A stretch of DNA of 45,378 nt from a virus. Lineage: Duplodnaviria > Heunggongvirae > Uroviricota > Caudoviricetes. The notes beneath the pieces are model-generated. The model was not told the origin of the DNA. It did no database searches and worked only from the letters and a program-made list of their open reading frames with translations. Below are positions 1,009 through 45,378 of the stretch, piece by piece (positions within the stretch are counted from its first letter, which is position 1; each line of letters starts with the position of its first letter). The position numbers and the translations under genes were made by a program. Where the stretch lies: the IMG/VR virus record IMGVR_UViG_2563366799_000010, positions 1 to 45,378 of that record. One strand, given 5' to 3'.

Positions 1009-1083
1009 GTCCTCTTAGTTAAATGGATATAACGAGCCCCTCCTAAGGGCTAATTGCAGGTTCGATTCCTGCAGGGGACACCA
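1009..1083 (+). tRNA. argW: tRNA-Arg (anticodon CCU), prophage integration target
   Basis: 75-nt cloverleaf read directly: acceptor GTCCTCT/AGGGGAC, anticodon loop CTCCTAA (anticodon CCT), T-arm GCAGG-TTCGATT-CCTGC, 3' CCA. Confidence 0.85.
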
Positions 1084-1244
1084 TTTATCAGTTCGCCTCC
1101 ATCCGTACCAGTCCGCAAAATCCCCTGAATATCAAGCCTTCCGTAGATTCACAGTTCGTCATGGTTCGCGTCAGATCGTTGACAGCCGCACTCCATGACG
1201 GGTAAAAAGTGGATAAAATAATTTTACCCACCGGATTTTTACCC

Positions 1245-2402
1245 ATGCTCACCGTTAAGCAGATTGAAGCAGCAAAGCCGAAAGAAAAACCATACCGCCT
1301 TCTCGATGGTAATGGCCTGTACCTTTATGTCCCTGTATCAGGGAAAAAGGTATGGCAGCTTCGCTACAAGATTGACGGTAAGGAGAAAATCCTGACCGTA
1401 GGAAAATATCCGCTAATGACTTTGCAGGAAGCAAGAGATAAAGCATGGACCGCGAGGAAAGACATCTCGGTTGGCATCGATCCGGTAAAAGCGAAAAAGG
1501 CTTCGTCTAACAACAATTCCTTTAGTGCCATTTACAAGGAATGGTACGAGCACAAGAAGCAAGTCTGGTCAGTAGGCTATGCAACTGAACTTGCCAAAAT
1601 GTTTGATGACGACATTTTACCCATCATCGGCGGTCTTGAGATTCAGGATATTGAGCCGATGCAACTGCTGGAAGTAATCCGCAGATTTGAAGATCGCGGT
1701 GCAATGGAGCGAGCAAATAAAGCCCGCAGAAGATGCGGCGAGGTTTTCCGTTACGCTATTGTCACCGGCAGGGCTAAATATAACCCGGCACCTGACCTTG
1801 CAGACGCCATGAAAGGATACCGCAAGAAGAACTTCCCGTTTCTTCCTGCAGACCAGATCCCGGCATTCAACAAAGCACTGGCAACATTTTCAGGAAGTAT
1901 CGTATCGCTCATTGCGACCAAAGTTTTACGCTACACAGCCCTAAGAACGAAAGAGCTTCGCTCCATGCAATGGAAGAACGTCGATTTTGAAAACAGGATT
2001 ATCACCATCGACGCCAGTGTGATGAAGGGCCGCAAGATTCATGTTGTTCCTATGTCAGACCAGGTGGTTGAACTTCTCACTACGCTAAGCTCAATCACTA
2101 AACCAGTATCAGAGTTTGTTTTTGCCGGGCGCAACGATAAGAAGAAGCCAATCTGCGAGAACGCGGTATTGCTTGTGATTAAACAAATCGGCTATGAGGG
2201 TCTGGAAAGCGGTCACGGATTCAGGCATGAATTCAGCACGATTATGAACGAGCACGAATGGCCTGCTGACGCTATTGAAGTGCAACTTGCACATGCCAAC
2301 GGCGGATCTGTGCGCGGGATTTACAACCATGCTCAGTATCTAGATAAGCGCAGAGAAATGATGCAATGGTGGGCGGACTGGATTGATGGGAAGGTGGAGT
2401 GA
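1245..2402 (+). CDS. intS: P4-type tyrosine integrase (site-specific recombinase)
   Basis: 385 aa from the internal ATG (ORF track starts at a GTG at 1209); C-terminal HGFRHEF...HAQYL catalytic-type motifs; directly downstream of argW. Confidence 0.85.
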   Translation: MLTVKQIEAAKPKEKPYRLLDGNGLYLYVPVSGKKVWQLRYKIDGKEKILTVGKYPLMTLQEARDKAWTARKDISVGIDPVKAKKASSNNNSFSAIYKEWYEHKKQVWSVGYATELAKMFDDDILPIIGGLEIQDIEPMQLLEVIRRFEDRGAMERANKARRRCGEVFRYAIVTGRAKYNPAPDLADAMKGYRKKNFPFLPADQIPAFNKALATFSGSIVSLIATKVLRYTALRTKELRSMQWKNVDFENRIITIDASVMKGRKIHVVPMSDQVVELLTTLSSITKPVSEFVFAGRNDKKKPICENAVLLVIKQIGYEGLESGHGFRHEFSTIMNEHEWPADAIEVQLAHANGGSVRGIYNHAQYLDKRREMMQWWADWIDGKVE

Positions 2403-3844: not shown

Positions 3845-4506
3845 GCTCCAACATCAAAACCACTGATGAATTCGTTATCCATATCAAAACCAAAAAATTT
3901 AGAACCCTCGGAAGGTGTTTCTACCGAAGGCGTTTCAACATCCCCAGCCCATACGCCAGCTGCTTTAACGGTGAGATAACCCTGTTTGATAGCGGCTATC
4001 AGTTCGAGTGACACATCAGAAATATCAGTCTCGGGAAAAACCCAGACCGATATCGTCATGTCCTGGTTATCGACTATCTGCATTCGCAGTCCGGATCCTG
4101 CTGTTGCCGCGTCAAGAATTACCGGAAGCGAATCATTCCGTCCGTCCCAGTTATTAATCGCAATCTTCGCTTTAAGAATGACACGATAAGTTTCATCGCT
4201 GAGATACATGTATCCTGAATCAGGATCATATGGCCCCTGCCATACCCCCTGATCATATCCAAGCCCGTCGGTATCCCAGCTGAAATAGACACCTGAGATA
4301 GGCTGGCTGACAACACGGCTACGTCCGATCCACAATCCCAGAATGTCAAGTTGCACACCAACCGCAGAGTCAATATCAAATGCAGTAATCAGCCCTCTGG
4401 TGGCAGCCGCAACATCAATAAGTGGCCGGGTCATCAGATCAACATGCGCAAGAAATTTAGGTTTGGTGGCGTGGTAGTTCGTGATTATTTCGGTGTATTT
4501 GCTCAT
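3826..4506 (-). CDS. Baseplate/tail protein (DUF2612-like)
   Basis: 226-aa ORF between the baseplate J-like gene and the fiber gene; overlapping stop/start junctions. Confidence 0.45.
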   Translation of the reverse strand: MSKYTEIITNYHATKPKFLAHVDLMTRPLIDVAAATRGLITAFDIDSAVGVQLDILGLWIGRSRVVSQPISGVYFSWDTDGLGYDQGVWQGPYDPDSGYMYLSDETYRVILKAKIAINNWDGRNDSLPVILDAATAGSGLRMQIVDNQDMTISVWVFPETDISDVSLELIAAIKQGYLTVKAAGVWAGDVETPSVETPSEGSKFFGFDMDNEFISGFDVGAWGTLL

Positions 4507-5702
4507 GACTCCACCGTTATAACGATATTTTCCGGGGTACAGGACGCAGATTCGTTGTATCTGATATCAATGTTTGATGACGACAAAGCCCCCGGGGATT
4601 TCCCAATCGTCAGTTCCTGAATATCGTAATAGCGTGCATTACCGCCACTCACCACGCCAAGATTCGCCGGTGAGTAAATGCGACTTAAAAGGACCGAATC
4701 ACCAATCATCAGACTATTGATATAGTCGGAAATAGCCTGCTGGATCTGCTGCCCTATCTGTGAGGTATAACCCGTAAAAACTTTTAATTTAATCCGGGCA
4801 TAAACAGGTACATCACTGGAACGCGAGAATTTGATTACATGGGGATTGCCGTATTTATCCGGAACCGTAACGGATGTTGTACCGTGAGTGGCTGTCCCCT
4901 GGCCTTTATTCCCTCTGATAGCCTGAGCAATATCCGTCACATCACCGCCATCCACAATTACAGCAACAGAGTGTGGCGGTAACCCGTTACCGTCCTCCGA
5001 ACCAGTATCGTTTTCATAGAGTTTGTGGCGGGTTACACCGGTAACATTAGAAACGGCACCATCCAGTGCTTCAAATGGGGTTATTGATGGCAACGCAACA
5101 CTTTGCGACTGGCGGATACGTAACTCCGCATCAGTTTCTGCTGGAGTGCCTACAGTAGCTGCAGCAGGATTGGTTACCGAAACCCAGCCACGGGTTGGCG
5201 TATTAATTTCAGTGATAGTTCCAGCCAGCGCCGCCACTGCACCACTGACGGAACATTTTGCGGTCGCCATCACTGTACCATCCACGCCGACCACCACTGA
5301 AGCAGGCAAACGCCATATCACATTATTACTGTCTTTCACGCTGCCATTAATGATGGTTGTTCCGGCAGTTCCTGTAAGAAGCAAATCAACCGTAGAGTTC
5401 GTCGCGCCTTTACGTGAAATACCATTTATTTTCACGTTGCTGGTCAGTGCAGCCCCATAGCCGGTTGCCGGTGAAAAACAGTTGTAGACAGTTATCGCCA
5501 TATTATTGGCATCATGAATCGCCAGCGCCATCAGAGCCACCATCTGGCCGTCTTTGCTGTCCGGTTCGAGGTAGGCATCACTGCCATAAACCTGCTGAAA
5601 ATAGCTAATCAGGGTGCTGAGTATCGTCTGATAATCAGGCGCACTGATCCCCTCCGCGGTTACCTTTGCAGATAAACCGAGAGAATCAAGGTTCAGAGCC
5701 AT
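4503..5702 (-). CDS. Baseplate J-like protein
   Basis: 399-aa ORF; size, position and sequence character of baseplate J/gp47-like wedge proteins. Confidence 0.65.
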   Translation of the reverse strand: MALNLDSLGLSAKVTAEGISAPDYQTILSTLISYFQQVYGSDAYLEPDSKDGQMVALMALAIHDANNMAITVYNCFSPATGYGAALTSNVKINGISRKGATNSTVDLLLTGTAGTTIINGSVKDSNNVIWRLPASVVVGVDGTVMATAKCSVSGAVAALAGTITEINTPTRGWVSVTNPAAATVGTPAETDAELRIRQSQSVALPSITPFEALDGAVSNVTGVTRHKLYENDTGSEDGNGLPPHSVAVIVDGGDVTDIAQAIRGNKGQGTATHGTTSVTVPDKYGNPHVIKFSRSSDVPVYARIKLKVFTGYTSQIGQQIQQAISDYINSLMIGDSVLLSRIYSPANLGVVSGGNARYYDIQELTIGKSPGALSSSNIDIRYNESASCTPENIVITVES

Positions 5703-20580: not shown

Positions 20581-21901
20581 CTTCTATGTCCTCATCAGTG
20601 ATAGAACCACCGATCCCAATCACATCAGAAATGTTCCTGAGGTCGTTAAGCGCTGCTGCAGGCGTCATTCCGAGCTCACGAACGGCGGTACCGAGTGCGG
20701 TAACCACATTGTTCGCCATCGCTGCACGGTCCACGTCTGACATCTCCCAGAGCTTGTTAAACTCGAATGTAAAATCGTCAGGCAGTGGTTCACCGAACAG
20801 AGAGCGCCAGGAGATATCGAGCAGCCAGCGGATATGTCGGCGTAAGCGTCTCTCCTGCAGCGAGTTAACCCGGCTGTAGTAGTTTTCCAGATCGCCGTCG
20901 CCGGTGTTGAAACCTGCAGGGGACTGCCCGAACAGACGGACGAGAGGAATTCCCGTCGCGCCGGAAACCTGCTCAGCAAAGCGCAGAAGGACATCAGCGA
21001 TACCCGCAAACGTATAGCTGTGGGTTTCGAACTTATCCTTACCATCCATGATGGTCATGCCTTCGATGGTCTGGAACTGACGTATCATGTCCAGGTGCTT
21101 CATCAGCGCCTTTTCAAGGTCGCCTCCGGTAGCAAGAATCTTGCGCAGGTCTTCAATGCTGTAGGTCCGCAGATGCGCTTTGTGGATCAGCTGTGTGGTG
21201 CCGACGGTCGCAGTATCAAACGCCTCGATACGCTCGAAAATACGCTCCACGACAGACATCCCCCAGCCGTTTTCCGTCTGAGCCTGCTGGAAAGGAAGCG
21301 TATCGCCCTCCATGCGGATAACGCGGCTATGGTGGATCTTCCAGGGGGGAATCCCCTGCTGGTTCGTGATTACCTTGTAATATTTCGGTTTCCCAAAATC
21401 GGGACCGTAATCGGTAACGAGATCGTAATAACTCGGGTTAACCATCCAGCGGTCAAGGCTCATCACGCCCTTAAATTGCCCCTCTTTGATGCGATCCAGT
21501 TTAAGCGGGGAGGACATATCCTGCCCTTCAAGCAGGACCACCAGCACCGCGCCACCGTACAATCGTGACCATTTGAGGTTATCGTTAAGCCCATCCCATA
21601 TAGCGAGCTCATCCCAGAAGGTTTCGAGCTCGCCCTTTTGTCCGGGCTTCAGCTTTGAGCTGATGTTAATCCCCTTGCGGGTCATATCATCGGCCATCGC
21701 ATCCACACCGACACCAACGAGGAACGATGAACGATACGCAAACTCCAGCATCACCCTGTTACGGCTGATGTACCCGGGCATGTACATTCCGCCCGTCTGT
21801 ATGTTTCTGGTGTCGCTGCCAAGTTTGGCCGTGAAATTGTTGTACCCGTCAGCTGTCGCAACGGGCTTTTGTGCGCCGTTCTGGCGTTTCTTACGGGACA
21901 T
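20432..21901 (-). CDS. Portal protein
   Basis: About 490 aa, directly downstream of the large terminase; start at the ATG 2 nt after the terminase stop. Confidence 0.7.
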   Translation of the reverse strand: MSRKKRQNGAQKPVATADGYNNFTAKLGSDTRNIQTGGMYMPGYISRNRVMLEFAYRSSFLVGVGVDAMADDMTRKGINISSKLKPGQKGELETFWDELAIWDGLNDNLKWSRLYGGAVLVVLLEGQDMSSPLKLDRIKEGQFKGVMSLDRWMVNPSYYDLVTDYGPDFGKPKYYKVITNQQGIPPWKIHHSRVIRMEGDTLPFQQAQTENGWGMSVVERIFERIEAFDTATVGTTQLIHKAHLRTYSIEDLRKILATGGDLEKALMKHLDMIRQFQTIEGMTIMDGKDKFETHSYTFAGIADVLLRFAEQVSGATGIPLVRLFGQSPAGFNTGDGDLENYYSRVNSLQERRLRRHIRWLLDISWRSLFGEPLPDDFTFEFNKLWEMSDVDRAAMANNVVTALGTAVRELGMTPAAALNDLRNISDVIGIGGSITDEDIEDAKAQWQEDEPETIPPPSFGDPVSKKPVGDSKPDRADRRWYLRWFTGQR

Positions 21902-33519: not shown

Positions 33520-34365
33520 TCACTCCTGCGCCCATGAAGGCATTTCAGTTTGCCCGTAATCTTTGGCGGCAAAGTTTTCCTGCATAGCTCGCTGCTGCGG
33601 CCTCGGTTGAGATTTCCCCTTTGGAGTCTTGGGTTCAAAAATCCCCTGCCAACCACTGGCGATGCTCTGGTTTATAATTTCTTCAGGTGTATATCCCTTC
33701 TCCAGACTTCTGCTTAGAACGTTGATAGCCTGAGTGACGCTTTGCTTAGACTTGATCGACTTACCTATCTCCTTGCGATAGGTAACCCACGACAACCATG
33801 TTTCTGCCGATAACCAATCAGGCAACTCTGTTTCTAGCGGGTCGAACTTCTGAGAAATTTTTTTGGGGGATATAGGGGGTTTATTAATATTTTCTTTTGT
33901 CTTTAAAGAATGTCTTTTGTGTGTCTCTAACTTCGAGACATTGAGTGTCTCTAATTTGGAGACATTTTTTGTCTCTAACTTCGAGACAAAGTTGCTAACT
34001 TGGAGACACTTGCTGAATTGCCACGCAGATACCTCCCTGTTTACACCGATTTGATTTCCATCCATAAACAGGCAATTCATTGAAATCAGTTCTTTTTTAG
34101 CCTTGTTAACATTCTGCCTTGATAGTCCTGTTAACTGAGCAATTTGCTCATCGGCTATTCGATCTGTTTTCTTATTGAATCCATATGTTTTCCGGACGTA
34201 GGCCAGCATAACTTTCAACTGGCGAGCGGTTAAATCGGCACTTGCGATAGCTTCCAGCAGCTCGTTAGCGAATCTGGTGTAACCATCATCGATATCAGCC
34301 ACTCTTAGCTCCTGTTCGGCAAAGTTACCTCTGCCGAAGTTGAGTATTTTTGCTGTATTTGTCAT
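33520..34365 (-). CDS. Replication initiator (lambda O-like)
   Basis: 281-aa ORF; internal repeats VSKLET x3 are encoded by origin iterons lying inside the gene. Confidence 0.7.
   Translation of the reverse strand: MTNTAKILNFGRGNFAEQELRVADIDDGYTRFANELLEAIASADLTARQLKVMLAYVRKTYGFNKKTDRIADEQIAQLTGLSRQNVNKAKKELISMNCLFMDGNQIGVNREVSAWQFSKCLQVSNFVSKLETKNVSKLETLNVSKLETHKRHSLKTKENINKPPISPKKISQKFDPLETELPDWLSAETWLSWVTYRKEIGKSIKSKQSVTQAINVLSRSLEKGYTPEEIINQSIASGWQGIFEPKTPKGKSQPRPQQRAMQENFAAKDYGQTEMPSWAQE
33922..34008. repeat. Replication origin: four 19-bp iterons (TGTCTCTAACTTCGAGACA-like) at 24-bp spacing, flanked by an AT-rich tract (33850-33920)
   Basis: Read directly: copies at 33922, 33946, 33970 and a degenerate one near 33990, each an inverted repeat TGTCTC...GAGACA. 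Confidence 0.65.
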
Positions 34366-34397: not shown

Positions 34398-34694
34398 TCA
34401 GAATTGCATATCAATTTGCTTAAAATCCTCGGTGGCGGCCGGGGATTTTTTCTTTGTGATTTCATCAAGCGCATACTTAAAAGCCCTGCTAATCGGACTG
34501 ATGTCTGATGCCATTCCGAAAGCACACAAGACCGAAGCAATAAATCTCCAGTCCGTTCTGCTTATCTTCGATTCATGACAGCCAATCATCTTTGCCAGAC
34601 CGCGCTGGGTAAGCGTTGACAGGTTGATGAGTAAATCTGTTTCTGCGCGATCAATTTCTCGCTGTGTTGGCTTGCTGTAACTTGCTTGTGTCAT
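34398..34694 (-). CDS. CII-like transcriptional activator
   Basis: 98 aa; C-terminal KKKSPAATEDFKQIDMQF resembles the lambda CII C-terminus as recalled; position downstream of cro. Confidence 0.55.
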   Translation of the reverse strand: MTQASYSKPTQREIDRAETDLLINLSTLTQRGLAKMIGCHESKISRTDWRFIASVLCAFGMASDISPISRAFKYALDEITKKKSPAATEDFKQIDMQF

Positions 34695-35178: not shown

Positions 35179-35883
35179 ATGGAAAACAAAGATATTCGCA
35201 AATCGAATCTGGCGTTTTTGCTAGATGAGCATAAAAAAATCGCGGGTAACACTAATGCAAGCTTTGCCGATAAGCTTGGGGTTAGCCCTTCTCAACTCAC
35301 GCAAGTCTCCGGTGAAAAAAGCACTCGAAACATAGGGGATAAACTAGCAAGAAAATTTGAAGCCGCACTTGGGTTACCTAATGGGTGGCTTGATTTGGTA
35401 CATGATGTAACACCAATTGCATCATGCTCAGATTCTTTAACTTTTGTCGGTCAGGTAAGAAAAGGGTTAGTGCGCGTGGTTGGTGAGGCAATTCTTGGTG
35501 TTGATGGTGCCATCGAGATGACCGAAGAGCGCGATGGGTGGCTCAAAATTTATAGCGATGATCCAGATGCCTTTGGCCTTCGTGTGAAAGGAGACAGCAT
35601 GTGGCCTAGAATAAAATCAGGAGAATATGTACTCATTGAGCCTAACACCAAAGTATTCCCGGGTGATGAGGTGTTTGTCAGAACCGTTGAAGGACACAAC
35701 ATGATTAAGGTTCTTGGCTATGACAGAGATGGAGAATACCAATTTACAAGCATCAACCAAGACCACAGGCCAATAACGTTGCCTTATCATCAAGTAGCAA
35801 AGGTGGAGTATGTGGCTGGTATTCTGAAGCAATCTCGCCATCTGGATGACATCGAGGCAAGGGAGTGGCTGAAAAGTTCGTGA
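35179..35883 (+). CDS. CI-type repressor (HTH plus S24 LexA-like autopeptidase)
   Basis: N-terminal HTH region; C-terminal S24 motif GDSMWPRIKSGEYVLIEPN with the catalytic Ser/Lys pattern. Confidence 0.85.
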   Translation: MENKDIRKSNLAFLLDEHKKIAGNTNASFADKLGVSPSQLTQVSGEKSTRNIGDKLARKFEAALGLPNGWLDLVHDVTPIASCSDSLTFVGQVRKGLVRVVGEAILGVDGAIEMTEERDGWLKIYSDDPDAFGLRVKGDSMWPRIKSGEYVLIEPNTKVFPGDEVFVRTVEGHNMIKVLGYDRDGEYQFTSINQDHRPITLPYHQVAKVEYVAGILKQSRHLDDIEAREWLKSS

Positions 35884-45030: not shown

Positions 45031-45110
45031 TATGAGCACTGGATGATATGGGCGCAGATAGCACATGCAGACGTAACCAATATTCGAATTGAAGAACTGA
45101 AAGAACACCA

Positions 45111-45133
45111 AGCCGCCTGATGGCGGTTTTTTA
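45111..45133 (+). terminator. Rho-independent terminator-like hairpin
   Basis: AGCCGCC-TGAT-GGCGGTT stem-loop followed by TTTTTTATTG. Confidence 0.45.
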
Positions 45134-45177
45134 TTGCCTGATTTGCAGGTTCGATTCCCTATTCGGAGATAGCACTC

Positions 45178-45378
45178 ATGCAACACGAACTACAGCCTGA
45201 TTCACTGGTTGATTTGAAATTCATCATGGCCGATACTGGCTTCGGTAAAACCTTCATCTATGACCGGATTAAGTCCGGGGACCTGCCTAAAGCCAAAGTT
45301 ATCCACGGGCGAGCAAGATGGTTATATCGTGACCATTGTGAATTCAAAAATAAGCTCTTAAGCCGCGCCAATGGGTAA
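45178..45378 (+). CDS. AlpA-family DNA-binding regulator / putative excisionase
   Basis: 66-aa ORF with an AlpA-type helix-turn-helix region; located at the prophage end distal to int. Confidence 0.5.
   Translation: MQHELQPDSLVDLKFIMADTGFGKTFIYDRIKSGDLPKAKVIHGRARWLYRDHCEFKNKLLSRANG

Follow-up and report, generated by a model that had tools for sequence, protein, structure and literature searches.

The closest described relatives of the locus analyzed here belong to the site-specific recombination module shared by the K-12 prophage KplE1 (CPS-53) and the phages HK620, Sf6, CUS-3, and Kapi1. In the free phage the module is ordered torI, attP, int, whereas in the prophage int and torI lie at opposite ends (PMC8787464, PMC2951348). 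In KplE1, expression of intS is constitutive, low, and autoregulated, the excision switch is the expression of the recombination directionality factor (RDF), and the promoter of the RDF gene, PtorI, is called uncharacterised (PMC2951348). The motif 'TAAA' is the arm-type motif (PMC2951348), and a 135-bp attR is sufficient for excision in vitro (PMC3509656). Operators for IntS and TorI have been mapped experimentally over PintS in attL; they occupy the P' arm beside intS, belong to the substrate of recombination, and double as regulatory operators of a gene of the module (Panis et al. 2010, PMC2951348). For prophages of the KplE1/HK620/Sf6 type, control of excision is generally ascribed to the expression of the RDF. 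Rho-controlled read-through reportedly drives the expression of torI. PMC11551753 carries a secondary citation for such Rho-controlled read-through of torI.

The window, i.e. the whole stretch of DNA that was analyzed (45,378 nucleotides), runs from argW and attL to the torI stop codon, with which it ends. Its left flank (200-1083) shares 99.9% identity with the yfdC-argW region of K-12, and the DNA at 1085-2402 is 96-97% identical with the attL arm and int of K-12 and Sf6. As in the KplE1/HK620/Sf6 module, a P4-family integrase reads away from argW, its promoter lies inside attL, and the P' arm carries the expected sites, with a TTGACA -35 element and five TorI boxes at the published spacings. 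The argW 3'-end core and the TAAA arm-type repeats are likewise those of the reference group. The product of the last gene is 100% identical to TorI/HkaC/gp18, the RDF of KplE1/HK620/Sf6. No Pfam or NCBIfam family scores above threshold for TorI, and its match to Pfam AlpA reaches 12.7 bits against a cut-off of 21; the original prediction, which placed a repeat between a terminator and an AlpA-like gene, was right about the terminator and about the position, and its 'AlpA-like' holds only loosely. The coordinates of the features are collected in Table 1.

Table 1. Features of the window that bear on the argW/torI repeat. All lie on the plus strand; positions are those of the window.
Feature	Position	Strand	Basis
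argW, tRNA-Arg(CCT), integration target	1009..1083	+	ARAGORN
argW copy of the 16-mer (5' T-stem, T-loop, CC)	1054..1069	+	pattern search
attL core CTGCAGGGGACACCAT, 16-nt duplicated core of KplE1/HK620/Sf6	1069..1084	+	PMC2951348; Sf6/HK620 annotation
attL P' arm, five published TorI boxes	1089..1179	+	sizes, spacings, and mutated pentamers of PMC2951348 mapped onto the window
TorI box I1 CAGTTCGC	1089-1096	+	mapped from PMC2951348
TorI box I2 CAGTCCGC	1109-1116	+	mapped from PMC2951348
TorI box I3 CAGTTCGT	1152-1159	+	mapped from PMC2951348
TorI box I4 TGGTTCGC	1162-1169	+	mapped from PMC2951348
TorI box I5 CAGATCGT	1172-1179	+	mapped from PMC2951348
PintS -35 TTGACA	1179-1184	+	after TorI boxes
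intS-type integrase, 385 aa, P4-family; arm-binding, central, and catalytic domains	1245..2402	+	Pfam PF13356, PF22022, PF00589
Intrinsic terminator, hairpin AAGCCGCC-TGAT-GGCGGTTT + T-run, closes early-left genes	45110..45135	+	hairpin 45110-45129
Conserved junction block ATTGCCTGAT, start of shared module	45133..45142	+	alignment of relatives
Far copy of the argW T-arm segment, torI leader	45143..45158	+	exact 16-nt match
Spacer + Shine-Dalgarno CTATTCGGAGAT	45159..45170	+	sequence
torI, recombination directionality factor (RDF), 66 aa	45178..45378	+	100% identity
Left end of functional attR	45355..45378	+	primer attR-IHF2 = 45355-45374 (PMC3509656)

The module differs from the reference members in its carrier. 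Here it resides in a myovirus-like prophage with baseplate and tape-measure genes, related to SEN34 and vB_EcoM-611R5, whereas the reference carriers are P22-like podoviruses of the HK620/Sf6 type or the 10-kb KplE1 remnant. The core of attR lies outside the window, which breaks off within the first IntS arm-type repeat (GGGTAAAAT), begun at 45373. The attP core annotated in Sf6 and HK620 is found 74 nt past the torI stop; in APEC_AN-25 and K-12 the same core occupies the same place and is followed by the dsdC flank, and most other relatives with DNA reaching far enough are arranged likewise. Based on these relatives, the attR core of this prophage is expected about 74 nt beyond 45378, where AATAGCGGGTAAAAT... 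would be followed by CTGCAGGGGACACCAT.

A pattern search of the window finds exactly two exact copies of the 16-mer TTGCAGGTTCGATTCC, one at 1054-1069 and the other at 45143-45158. Both are on the plus strand, and two occurrences were found in none of 100 shuffled windows. The far copy, in the leader of about 50 nt between the intrinsic terminator and torI, is real and sits where the original prediction had put it; the tRNA copy, assigned there to about 1058-1073, lies 4 nt further left. In argW the 16-mer is made up of the last two bases of the variable region, the 5' T-stem GCAGG, the T-loop TTCGATT, and the first CC of the 3' T-stem. The last base common to the two copies is C1069/C45158, short of the tRNA 3' end, as had been noticed; from there the tRNA reads on as TGCAGGGGACACCA and the far copy as CTATTCGG. 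ARAGORN reports argW as the sole tRNA of the window and does not call the far 16-mer as a tRNA. Resemblance to the T-arm at the level of RNA finds no footing in the leader: RNAalifold predicts 0 conserved pairs among 16 leaders, thus no conserved RNA structure, and beyond the terminator the fold of the window leader is no better than that of shuffled sequences (z = -1.43). An RNA-level mimic of the T-arm and a hairpin sequestering the Shine-Dalgarno sequence (AUUCC:GGAG) were rejected on these grounds.

How improbable such a match is depends on what is compared. Between the 75-nt tRNA and all other DNA of the window, about 0.0012 common 16-mers are expected, and a tRNA match of at least 16 nt arose in 2 of 1000 Markov simulations. 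When all positions are compared with all others, about 0.24 exact 16-mers are expected in the window by our own arithmetic, and another exact repeat, an unrelated 17-mer, does occur at 1598-1614 and 4569-4585. The statistical case therefore needs the tRNA as one partner, and the earlier statement that a 16-mer match is unlikely by chance in 45 kb holds with the tRNA so fixed and is weaker for an all-against-all comparison. The statistic alone is not decisive; stronger support comes from the comparative data.

The far 16-mer is not an attachment site, either of the present or of an earlier integration. The crossover core CTGCAGGGGACACCAT is a different sequence; in argW the 16-mer directly abuts this core on its 5' side, with C1069 as the single base common to both, and the matched part of the tRNA is therefore the segment 5' of the core, which is absent from a normal attR. 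An attachment site would be expected at a junction, but the far 16-mer has phage DNA on both sides, and in relatives the host flank starts only after the core, 74 nt past torI. It would also be expected within the DNA used for recombination, but the 135-bp attR excludes the 16-mer, which by the mapping of primer attR-IHF2 lies 197 nt from it. A hybrid argW-16mer-torI query, at a coverage of at least 80%, was matched in 0 of 5426 complete E. coli genomes, and a T-arm contiguous with the core was found in no phage, all 14 of 14 full-length hits consisting of two pieces about 385 nt apart. Finally, the virion genomes of Sf6 and HK620, and those of other free phages, contain the same 16-mer between the same flanks, as does KplE1. 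Because virion DNA has it as well, the 16-mer was not left behind by a previous or tandem integration in this host. The two interpretations offered first, a remnant of an earlier integration and a secondary or tandem attachment site, are thereby lost. The third, 'part of the phage attachment region', survives in the loose sense of a constant component of the xis-attP-int module, and not in the sense of the functional site, since it lies outside the 135-bp attR. In relatives the argW 3' end is indeed repeated, as a canonical direct repeat, to the right of the 16-mer, as the original prediction had foreseen for the event of its being wrong, while the 16-mer, whose absence from related phages it had coupled with this, is present in them.

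Comparison with the reference members instead shows the 16-mer to be a fixed component of the module. In the KplE1/HK620/Sf6 group it occupies the same position upstream of torI: in Sf6, HK620, and KplE1 of K-12, terminator or otherwise unrelated DNA is followed by ATT[G/A]CCTGAT, the 16-mer, 19 nt, and the torI ATG. The E. coli-type set examined comprises 49 IMG/VR loci with identical TorI and a locatable start; these display 32 distinct upstream sequences, and the 16-mer is nearly invariant among them. At least three unrelated upstream flanks with different terminator hairpins are all joined at TTTTTTATT[G/A]CCTGAT, just 5' of the 16-mer. The terminator hairpin varies among relatives and the sequence from the T-run on is common. 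The element itself had been sequenced before: it is a constant part of a well-known module, which is found here in a new phage background.

The 16-mer adjoins the core directly in argW, whereas in the phage they are about 290 nt apart, with torI and the P arm between them. The module thus holds a 31-nt fragment of the argW 3' end that is split by the RDF gene. This arrangement points to a tRNA-derived origin, which could be, for example, an ancestral attP that shared more sequence with the tRNA, or a deletion after a tandem array had formed at argW, and the location of torI between segments that are contiguous in argW is a clue to how the module was assembled. A decayed copy of the full tRNA 3' end in the leader was also considered (GGAGATAGCA versus GGGGACACCA, 7/10 by eye with a 2-nt offset) and was discarded as too weak.

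The conservation of the leader extends well beyond E. coli. Modules from about ten Enterobacterales genera were compared, the torI loci being collected with diverged TorI queries from contigs representing one genome per species and from viral contigs. The motif GTTCGATT[C/T]C occurs in 28 of 42 distinct TorI variants, and its carriers include Escherichia, Enterobacter, Citrobacter, Serratia, Pantoea, Edwardsiella, and others. In most lineages its first base lies 28-29 nt upstream of the ATG (range 26-42). In an alignment of the leaders of 17 lineages (Escherichia, Enterobacter, Citrobacter, Serratia, Pantoea, Edwardsiella, and metagenomic phages), the sole invariant non-coding columns are those of GTTCGATT.C, which is T-loop sequence and corresponds to 45149-45156 and 45158 of the window, and the leader positions around it vary freely, near saturation. 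The 5' flank TTGCAGG is confined to the E. coli lineage, others having TTCCAGG, GACAGG, TTTACAGG, etc.; that all 16 bases agree with argW in the E. coli lineage may mean either that they were kept or that the outer ones match by chance. Some leaders retain more of the T-arm. For example, the Serratia leader keeps part of the 3' T-stem (...GATTCCTG), its TTCCAGGTTCGATTCCTG matching the T-arm at 17 of 18 positions, and the Edwardsiella leader contains a full hairpin, GACAGGTTCGATTCCCTGTC. Tandem copies of the motif are present in the loci L127/128/130, L124, and L009 and in Erwinia phage Midgardsormr38.

The distribution of the motif is informative in two further respects. In Erwinia phage phiEt88, whose core is of the argW type, the integrase shares 74% identity with IntS and the RDF 39% with TorI, and TAGGTTCGATTCCC stands in the leader 29 nt upstream of the ATG. 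The P' arm of phiEt88 contains no GTTCG boxes; TGTAA, CGTTA, and CGTAA stand at I3-I5, and the arm-type repeats are GCGGGCATA. The locus g341c likewise carries the motif next to an RDF of about 51% identity. Conversely, the motif is missing in 14 of the 42 TorI variants and in phages Chronis and EhrS_49, which still have argW-type cores, and it is therefore dispensable. The host argW T-arm was invariant in 80 of 80 viral-contig loci examined, and the GATTTC variant of the tRNA was found in none of those loci. As the edges of the leader element have drifted, its centre is fixed, and the host T-arm is invariant, the pattern reflects constraint on the centre and not recurrent copying from the tRNA. 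Presence of the motif does not correlate with the sequence of the phage C site.

Taken as a whole, these comparisons suggest that the 16-mer is probably a constitutive cis-element of the IntS/TorI module rather than an attachment site, and that it most likely binds a protein and acts on torI expression. The 50 nt between the terminator and the torI Shine-Dalgarno sequence contain a conserved element, and PtorI is described as uncharacterised, which makes the element a reasonable candidate regulator. As to the protein, the sequence GTTCGATTCC at 45149-45158 equals 1060-1069, the last base of which is also the first of the core; it is the left flank of attB and abuts TGCAGG. On the phage side of the core most relatives have a similar sequence, TTCGATGT|TGCAGG, compared with TTCGATTCC|TGCAGG in argW. 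The invariant centre equals the bacterial half of the integrase core site, and for this reason integrase-binding is the most likely model: the element would be a candidate site for the core-binding and catalytic domains of the integrase, a copy of the left (B-type) half-site of attB. The preferred model is also suggested by the fact that the motif appears to follow the target of the integrase, argW, rather than the specificity of the RDF, being present in phiEt88 and g341c; across argW-type modules it is absent from a third.

A protein bound at the ribosome-binding region of torI could link RDF production to the recombination proteins; it might, for instance, damp read-through expression of torI in lysogens. 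More specifically, it is possible, and we offer this only tentatively, that by mimicking the argW T-loop the torI leader gives the integrase or a partner protein a means of sensing and setting RDF expression, and that the element is the missing cis-regulator of PtorI. If so, it would be a conserved feedback element that decides the timing of excision of argW prophages across Enterobacterales. A parallel within the module is offered by the operators over PintS, which resemble the leader element in that a TorI-type pentamer is present in it and in that the element equals the left flank of attB, a recombination sequence. The leader element differs from these operators in its location, at torI and outside the minimal attR, and in being a putative site. 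Several observations do not fit easily with integrase binding. A single half-site with no recognisable inverted partner would be an unusual target for an integrase, the C site of the E. coli phage itself (GTAGATGT) is unlike the motif, and a third of argW modules dispense with the motif. The conservation could alternatively stem from a function at the RNA level or of a host factor, or from horizontal spread of one leader cassette.

Among the other explanations, one holds that the element is a binding site for TorI itself (box GTTCG) and mediates negative autoregulation of torI, paralleling the repression of intS by TorI at attL. We consider this unlikely, and less likely than binding of the integrase. 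The published boxes contain GTTCG, GATCG, or GTCCG in 8-mers such as TGGTTCGC (PMC2951348), with the context YRG....Y, and the 16-mer offers AGGTTCGA, with a G[TA][TC]CG pentamer at 45149-45153 and 6 of 8 positions in common with I4. A second TorI-like box follows the first after 12 nt, over the Shine-Dalgarno sequence; it reads CAGTCCGG in L125/L129, TAGTTCGG in L009, and CTGTCCGG and CTGTTCGG in Edwardsiella and P. stewartii, the leader boxes of L125 match its own P'-arm boxes well, and tandem duplication of a motif is typical of RDF arrays. The second box is nevertheless poor in E. coli, including the window, where CTATTCGG in the spacer and Shine-Dalgarno region is a weak match, and in the L010/L012 group (CAAACYGG), and the spacing is 12 rather than 10 or 20. 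Moreover, a TorI box is shorter than GTTCGATT.C, which has A where the five mapped boxes have C or T. The motif also fails to co-vary with the box specificity of the RDF: phiEt88 keeps it (GGTTCGATTCCC) despite its 39% identical RDF and a P' arm devoid of GTTCG boxes.

It could also be reasoned that the element has no function, being a neutral fossil or mosaic boundary, i.e. a degenerate duplicate of the argW 3' part that an ancestor acquired and that has spread by horizontal exchange of one leader cassette. The contiguity of 16-mer and core in argW, the larger T-arm remnants in the Serratia and Edwardsiella leaders, the annotation of the region in Sf6 as a boundary sequence (bsq2), the frequency of tandem islands at argW, and the lack of the motif in a third of the lineages are all in keeping with such a history. 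Yet nine central positions are invariant in 17 lineages while their flanks are near saturated and RDF identity falls to 39-51%, the distance to the ATG is fixed, and independent tandem duplications keep the same centre. A tract of 16 nt is, in addition, too short for recurrent conversion from argW, and the leader variants differ from the invariant host T-arm. A functionless fossil is for these reasons doubtful, whereas a neutral origin with later exaptation is compatible with the preferred reading of the 16-mer as a cis-element of the module.

The existing annotation of the torI leader is of a different kind. The HK620 record marks a 'promoter, phage integration' and binding of 'cII protein' here and the Sf6 record marks 'pI', according to which TTGC-N-TTGC over the start of the 16-mer would bind CII and drive the integrase during lysogenisation. 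The locus does resemble a lambda-type pI in its proximity to xis and int, in having two TTGC tetramers (TTGCCTGATTTGC at 45134-45146), and in the CII homologue (PF05269) that the prophage encodes. It departs from one in the spacing of the tetramers, which is N5 instead of the canonical N6; N5 boxes occur in the window at or below the chance level (2 found versus 3.5 expected), and an N6 box is found at a pRE-like position, 34672-34685, in the 5' end of cII. The half-sites are polymorphic: the first, which is the TTGC of ATTGCCTGAT and is annotated in HK620 as the first half of the 'cII box', alternates between TTGC and TTAC and is TTAC in K-12 and many relatives, the second is TTCC, TGAC, TTAC, or CCAC elsewhere, and the conserved part, the T-loop block, lies downstream of them. 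No sigma-70-like -10/-35 pair was detected with them, intS already has a mapped promoter in attL, and a promoter placed ahead of torI would also produce the RDF at the time of integration. The cII/pI annotation is accordingly unlikely, and a CII-activated pI was rejected on these grounds. A sigma-70 promoter of torI's own was rejected as well, as a promoter scan detected none between the terminator and the torI ATG. By eye, relatives show a -10-like TAAAAC, from which transcription would start within the torI ORF.

Hardly credible, in view of the virion genomes, the separate core, and the 5426 E. coli genomes described above, is a secondary or remnant attachment site left in this host by an earlier or tandem integration at argW, for which one could cite the exact identity with the tRNA, the position near the prophage end, and the standing of argW as a hotspot with tandem elements. 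The contrast with pawZ, the argW pseudo-copy at the KplE1 attR of K-12, is instructive. Both are short exact copies of part of argW at the torI end, but repeats of the pawZ type comprise the core and the tRNA 3' end and lie at the junction of phage and host, whereas the 16-mer matches the T-arm segment 5' of the core and is internal to phage DNA. Annotators should therefore not take a short, perfect match to a tRNA close to the end of a prophage for the attachment site; a prophage boundary drawn at the 16-mer would lose torI and attR.

The literature searched contains no mention of the T-arm identity of the torI-leader sequence. Within it, the tRNA identity, the invariance across genera, and the independence from RDF specificity appear to be new. 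For a switch thought to lie in RDF expression, the comparative data single out one invariant block of 9-10 nt, which is a concrete and cheap target for mutagenesis and binding assays (e.g. GTTCGATT to CAAGCTAA). As a side observation, attR is in relatives often followed at once by tandem islands that carry other integrases.

The boundaries of the window (1 and 45378) look like the product of a prophage call made at gene boundaries that trimmed off attR. In many IMG/VR prophage contigs, L195, L208, L214, L215 and L249 among them, the argW T-arm is located precisely at 1059-1079 and the contig, like the window, ends at the stop codon of the excisionase gene torI. Among the related loci, a second, unrelated integrase gene is often found directly downstream of the attR core, giving rise to tandem islands at argW (L161/L140, L124/L132, and L116/L149). 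In L161/L140, a T-loop-like sequence, CTGGTTCGATTG, lies 25 nt upstream of the ATG of the second integrase. Loci L137 and L256 belong to the same contig, IMGVR_UViG_3300045988_145575, in which an intact argW T-arm and core apparently precede torI by only ~1.9 kb and share its strand. This points to either a minimal int-torI remnant or an atypical arrangement.

The structural genes of the window (2400-27000) are myovirus-like, encoding baseplate and tape measure proteins, and their best matches are Yersinia phage YP3, vB_EcoM-611R5, and Salmonella SEN34. Therefore, the int-torI module of Sf6, HK620, and KplE1 is mosaic across phage morphotypes. Enterobacterial-type torI modules with the argW core are also present on contigs binned in an 'Actinomycetes' MAG (L010, JAEWEJ010000341.1) and a 'Parachlamydiaceae' MAG (L027, JBKEAL010000209.1); both contigs are probably mis-binned or contaminating. 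In Salmonella phage g341c (L176), the CDS of the RDF homologue (1735-1998) is annotated from a GTG located 61 nt upstream of an ATG at 1796, the likely true start, and as a result the annotated ORF reads through the conserved leader motif GTTCGATTCCC and the SD.

The canonical cII box of the window served as an internal control for the N5 'box' near torI. It lies within the 5' end of cII and faces an S24-type repressor gene (35179-35883), the same arrangement as in lambda pRE.

Features of the window outside the torI leader
Feature	Position	Strand	Location
Canonical cII box, TTGCTGTAACTTGC, N6 spacing	34672-34685	+	Within 5' end of cII gene
cII gene	34398-34694	-	
CCTGCAGGGGAC, 12 nt of att core region	~20913-20924		Inside structural gene
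Exact 17-nt direct repeat, AATGTTTGATGACGACA	1598-1614 and 4569-4585		intS; ORF 4503-5702 (-)
Three 24-nt tandem repeats	33917-33988		ORF 33520-34365 (-)

The second occurrence of a segment of the att core region, CCTGCAGGGGAC, is no more than chance would give: in ~20% of simulations, the longest match reaches at least 12 nt. The direct repeat AATGTTTGATGACGACA, shared by the integrase gene and a minus-strand ORF, is longer than the 16-mer identical to part of the argW T-arm and may be a chance occurrence. The 24-nt tandem repeats, each of which contains the palindrome GTCTC...GAGAC, look like lambdoid origin iterons inside a replication-initiator gene.
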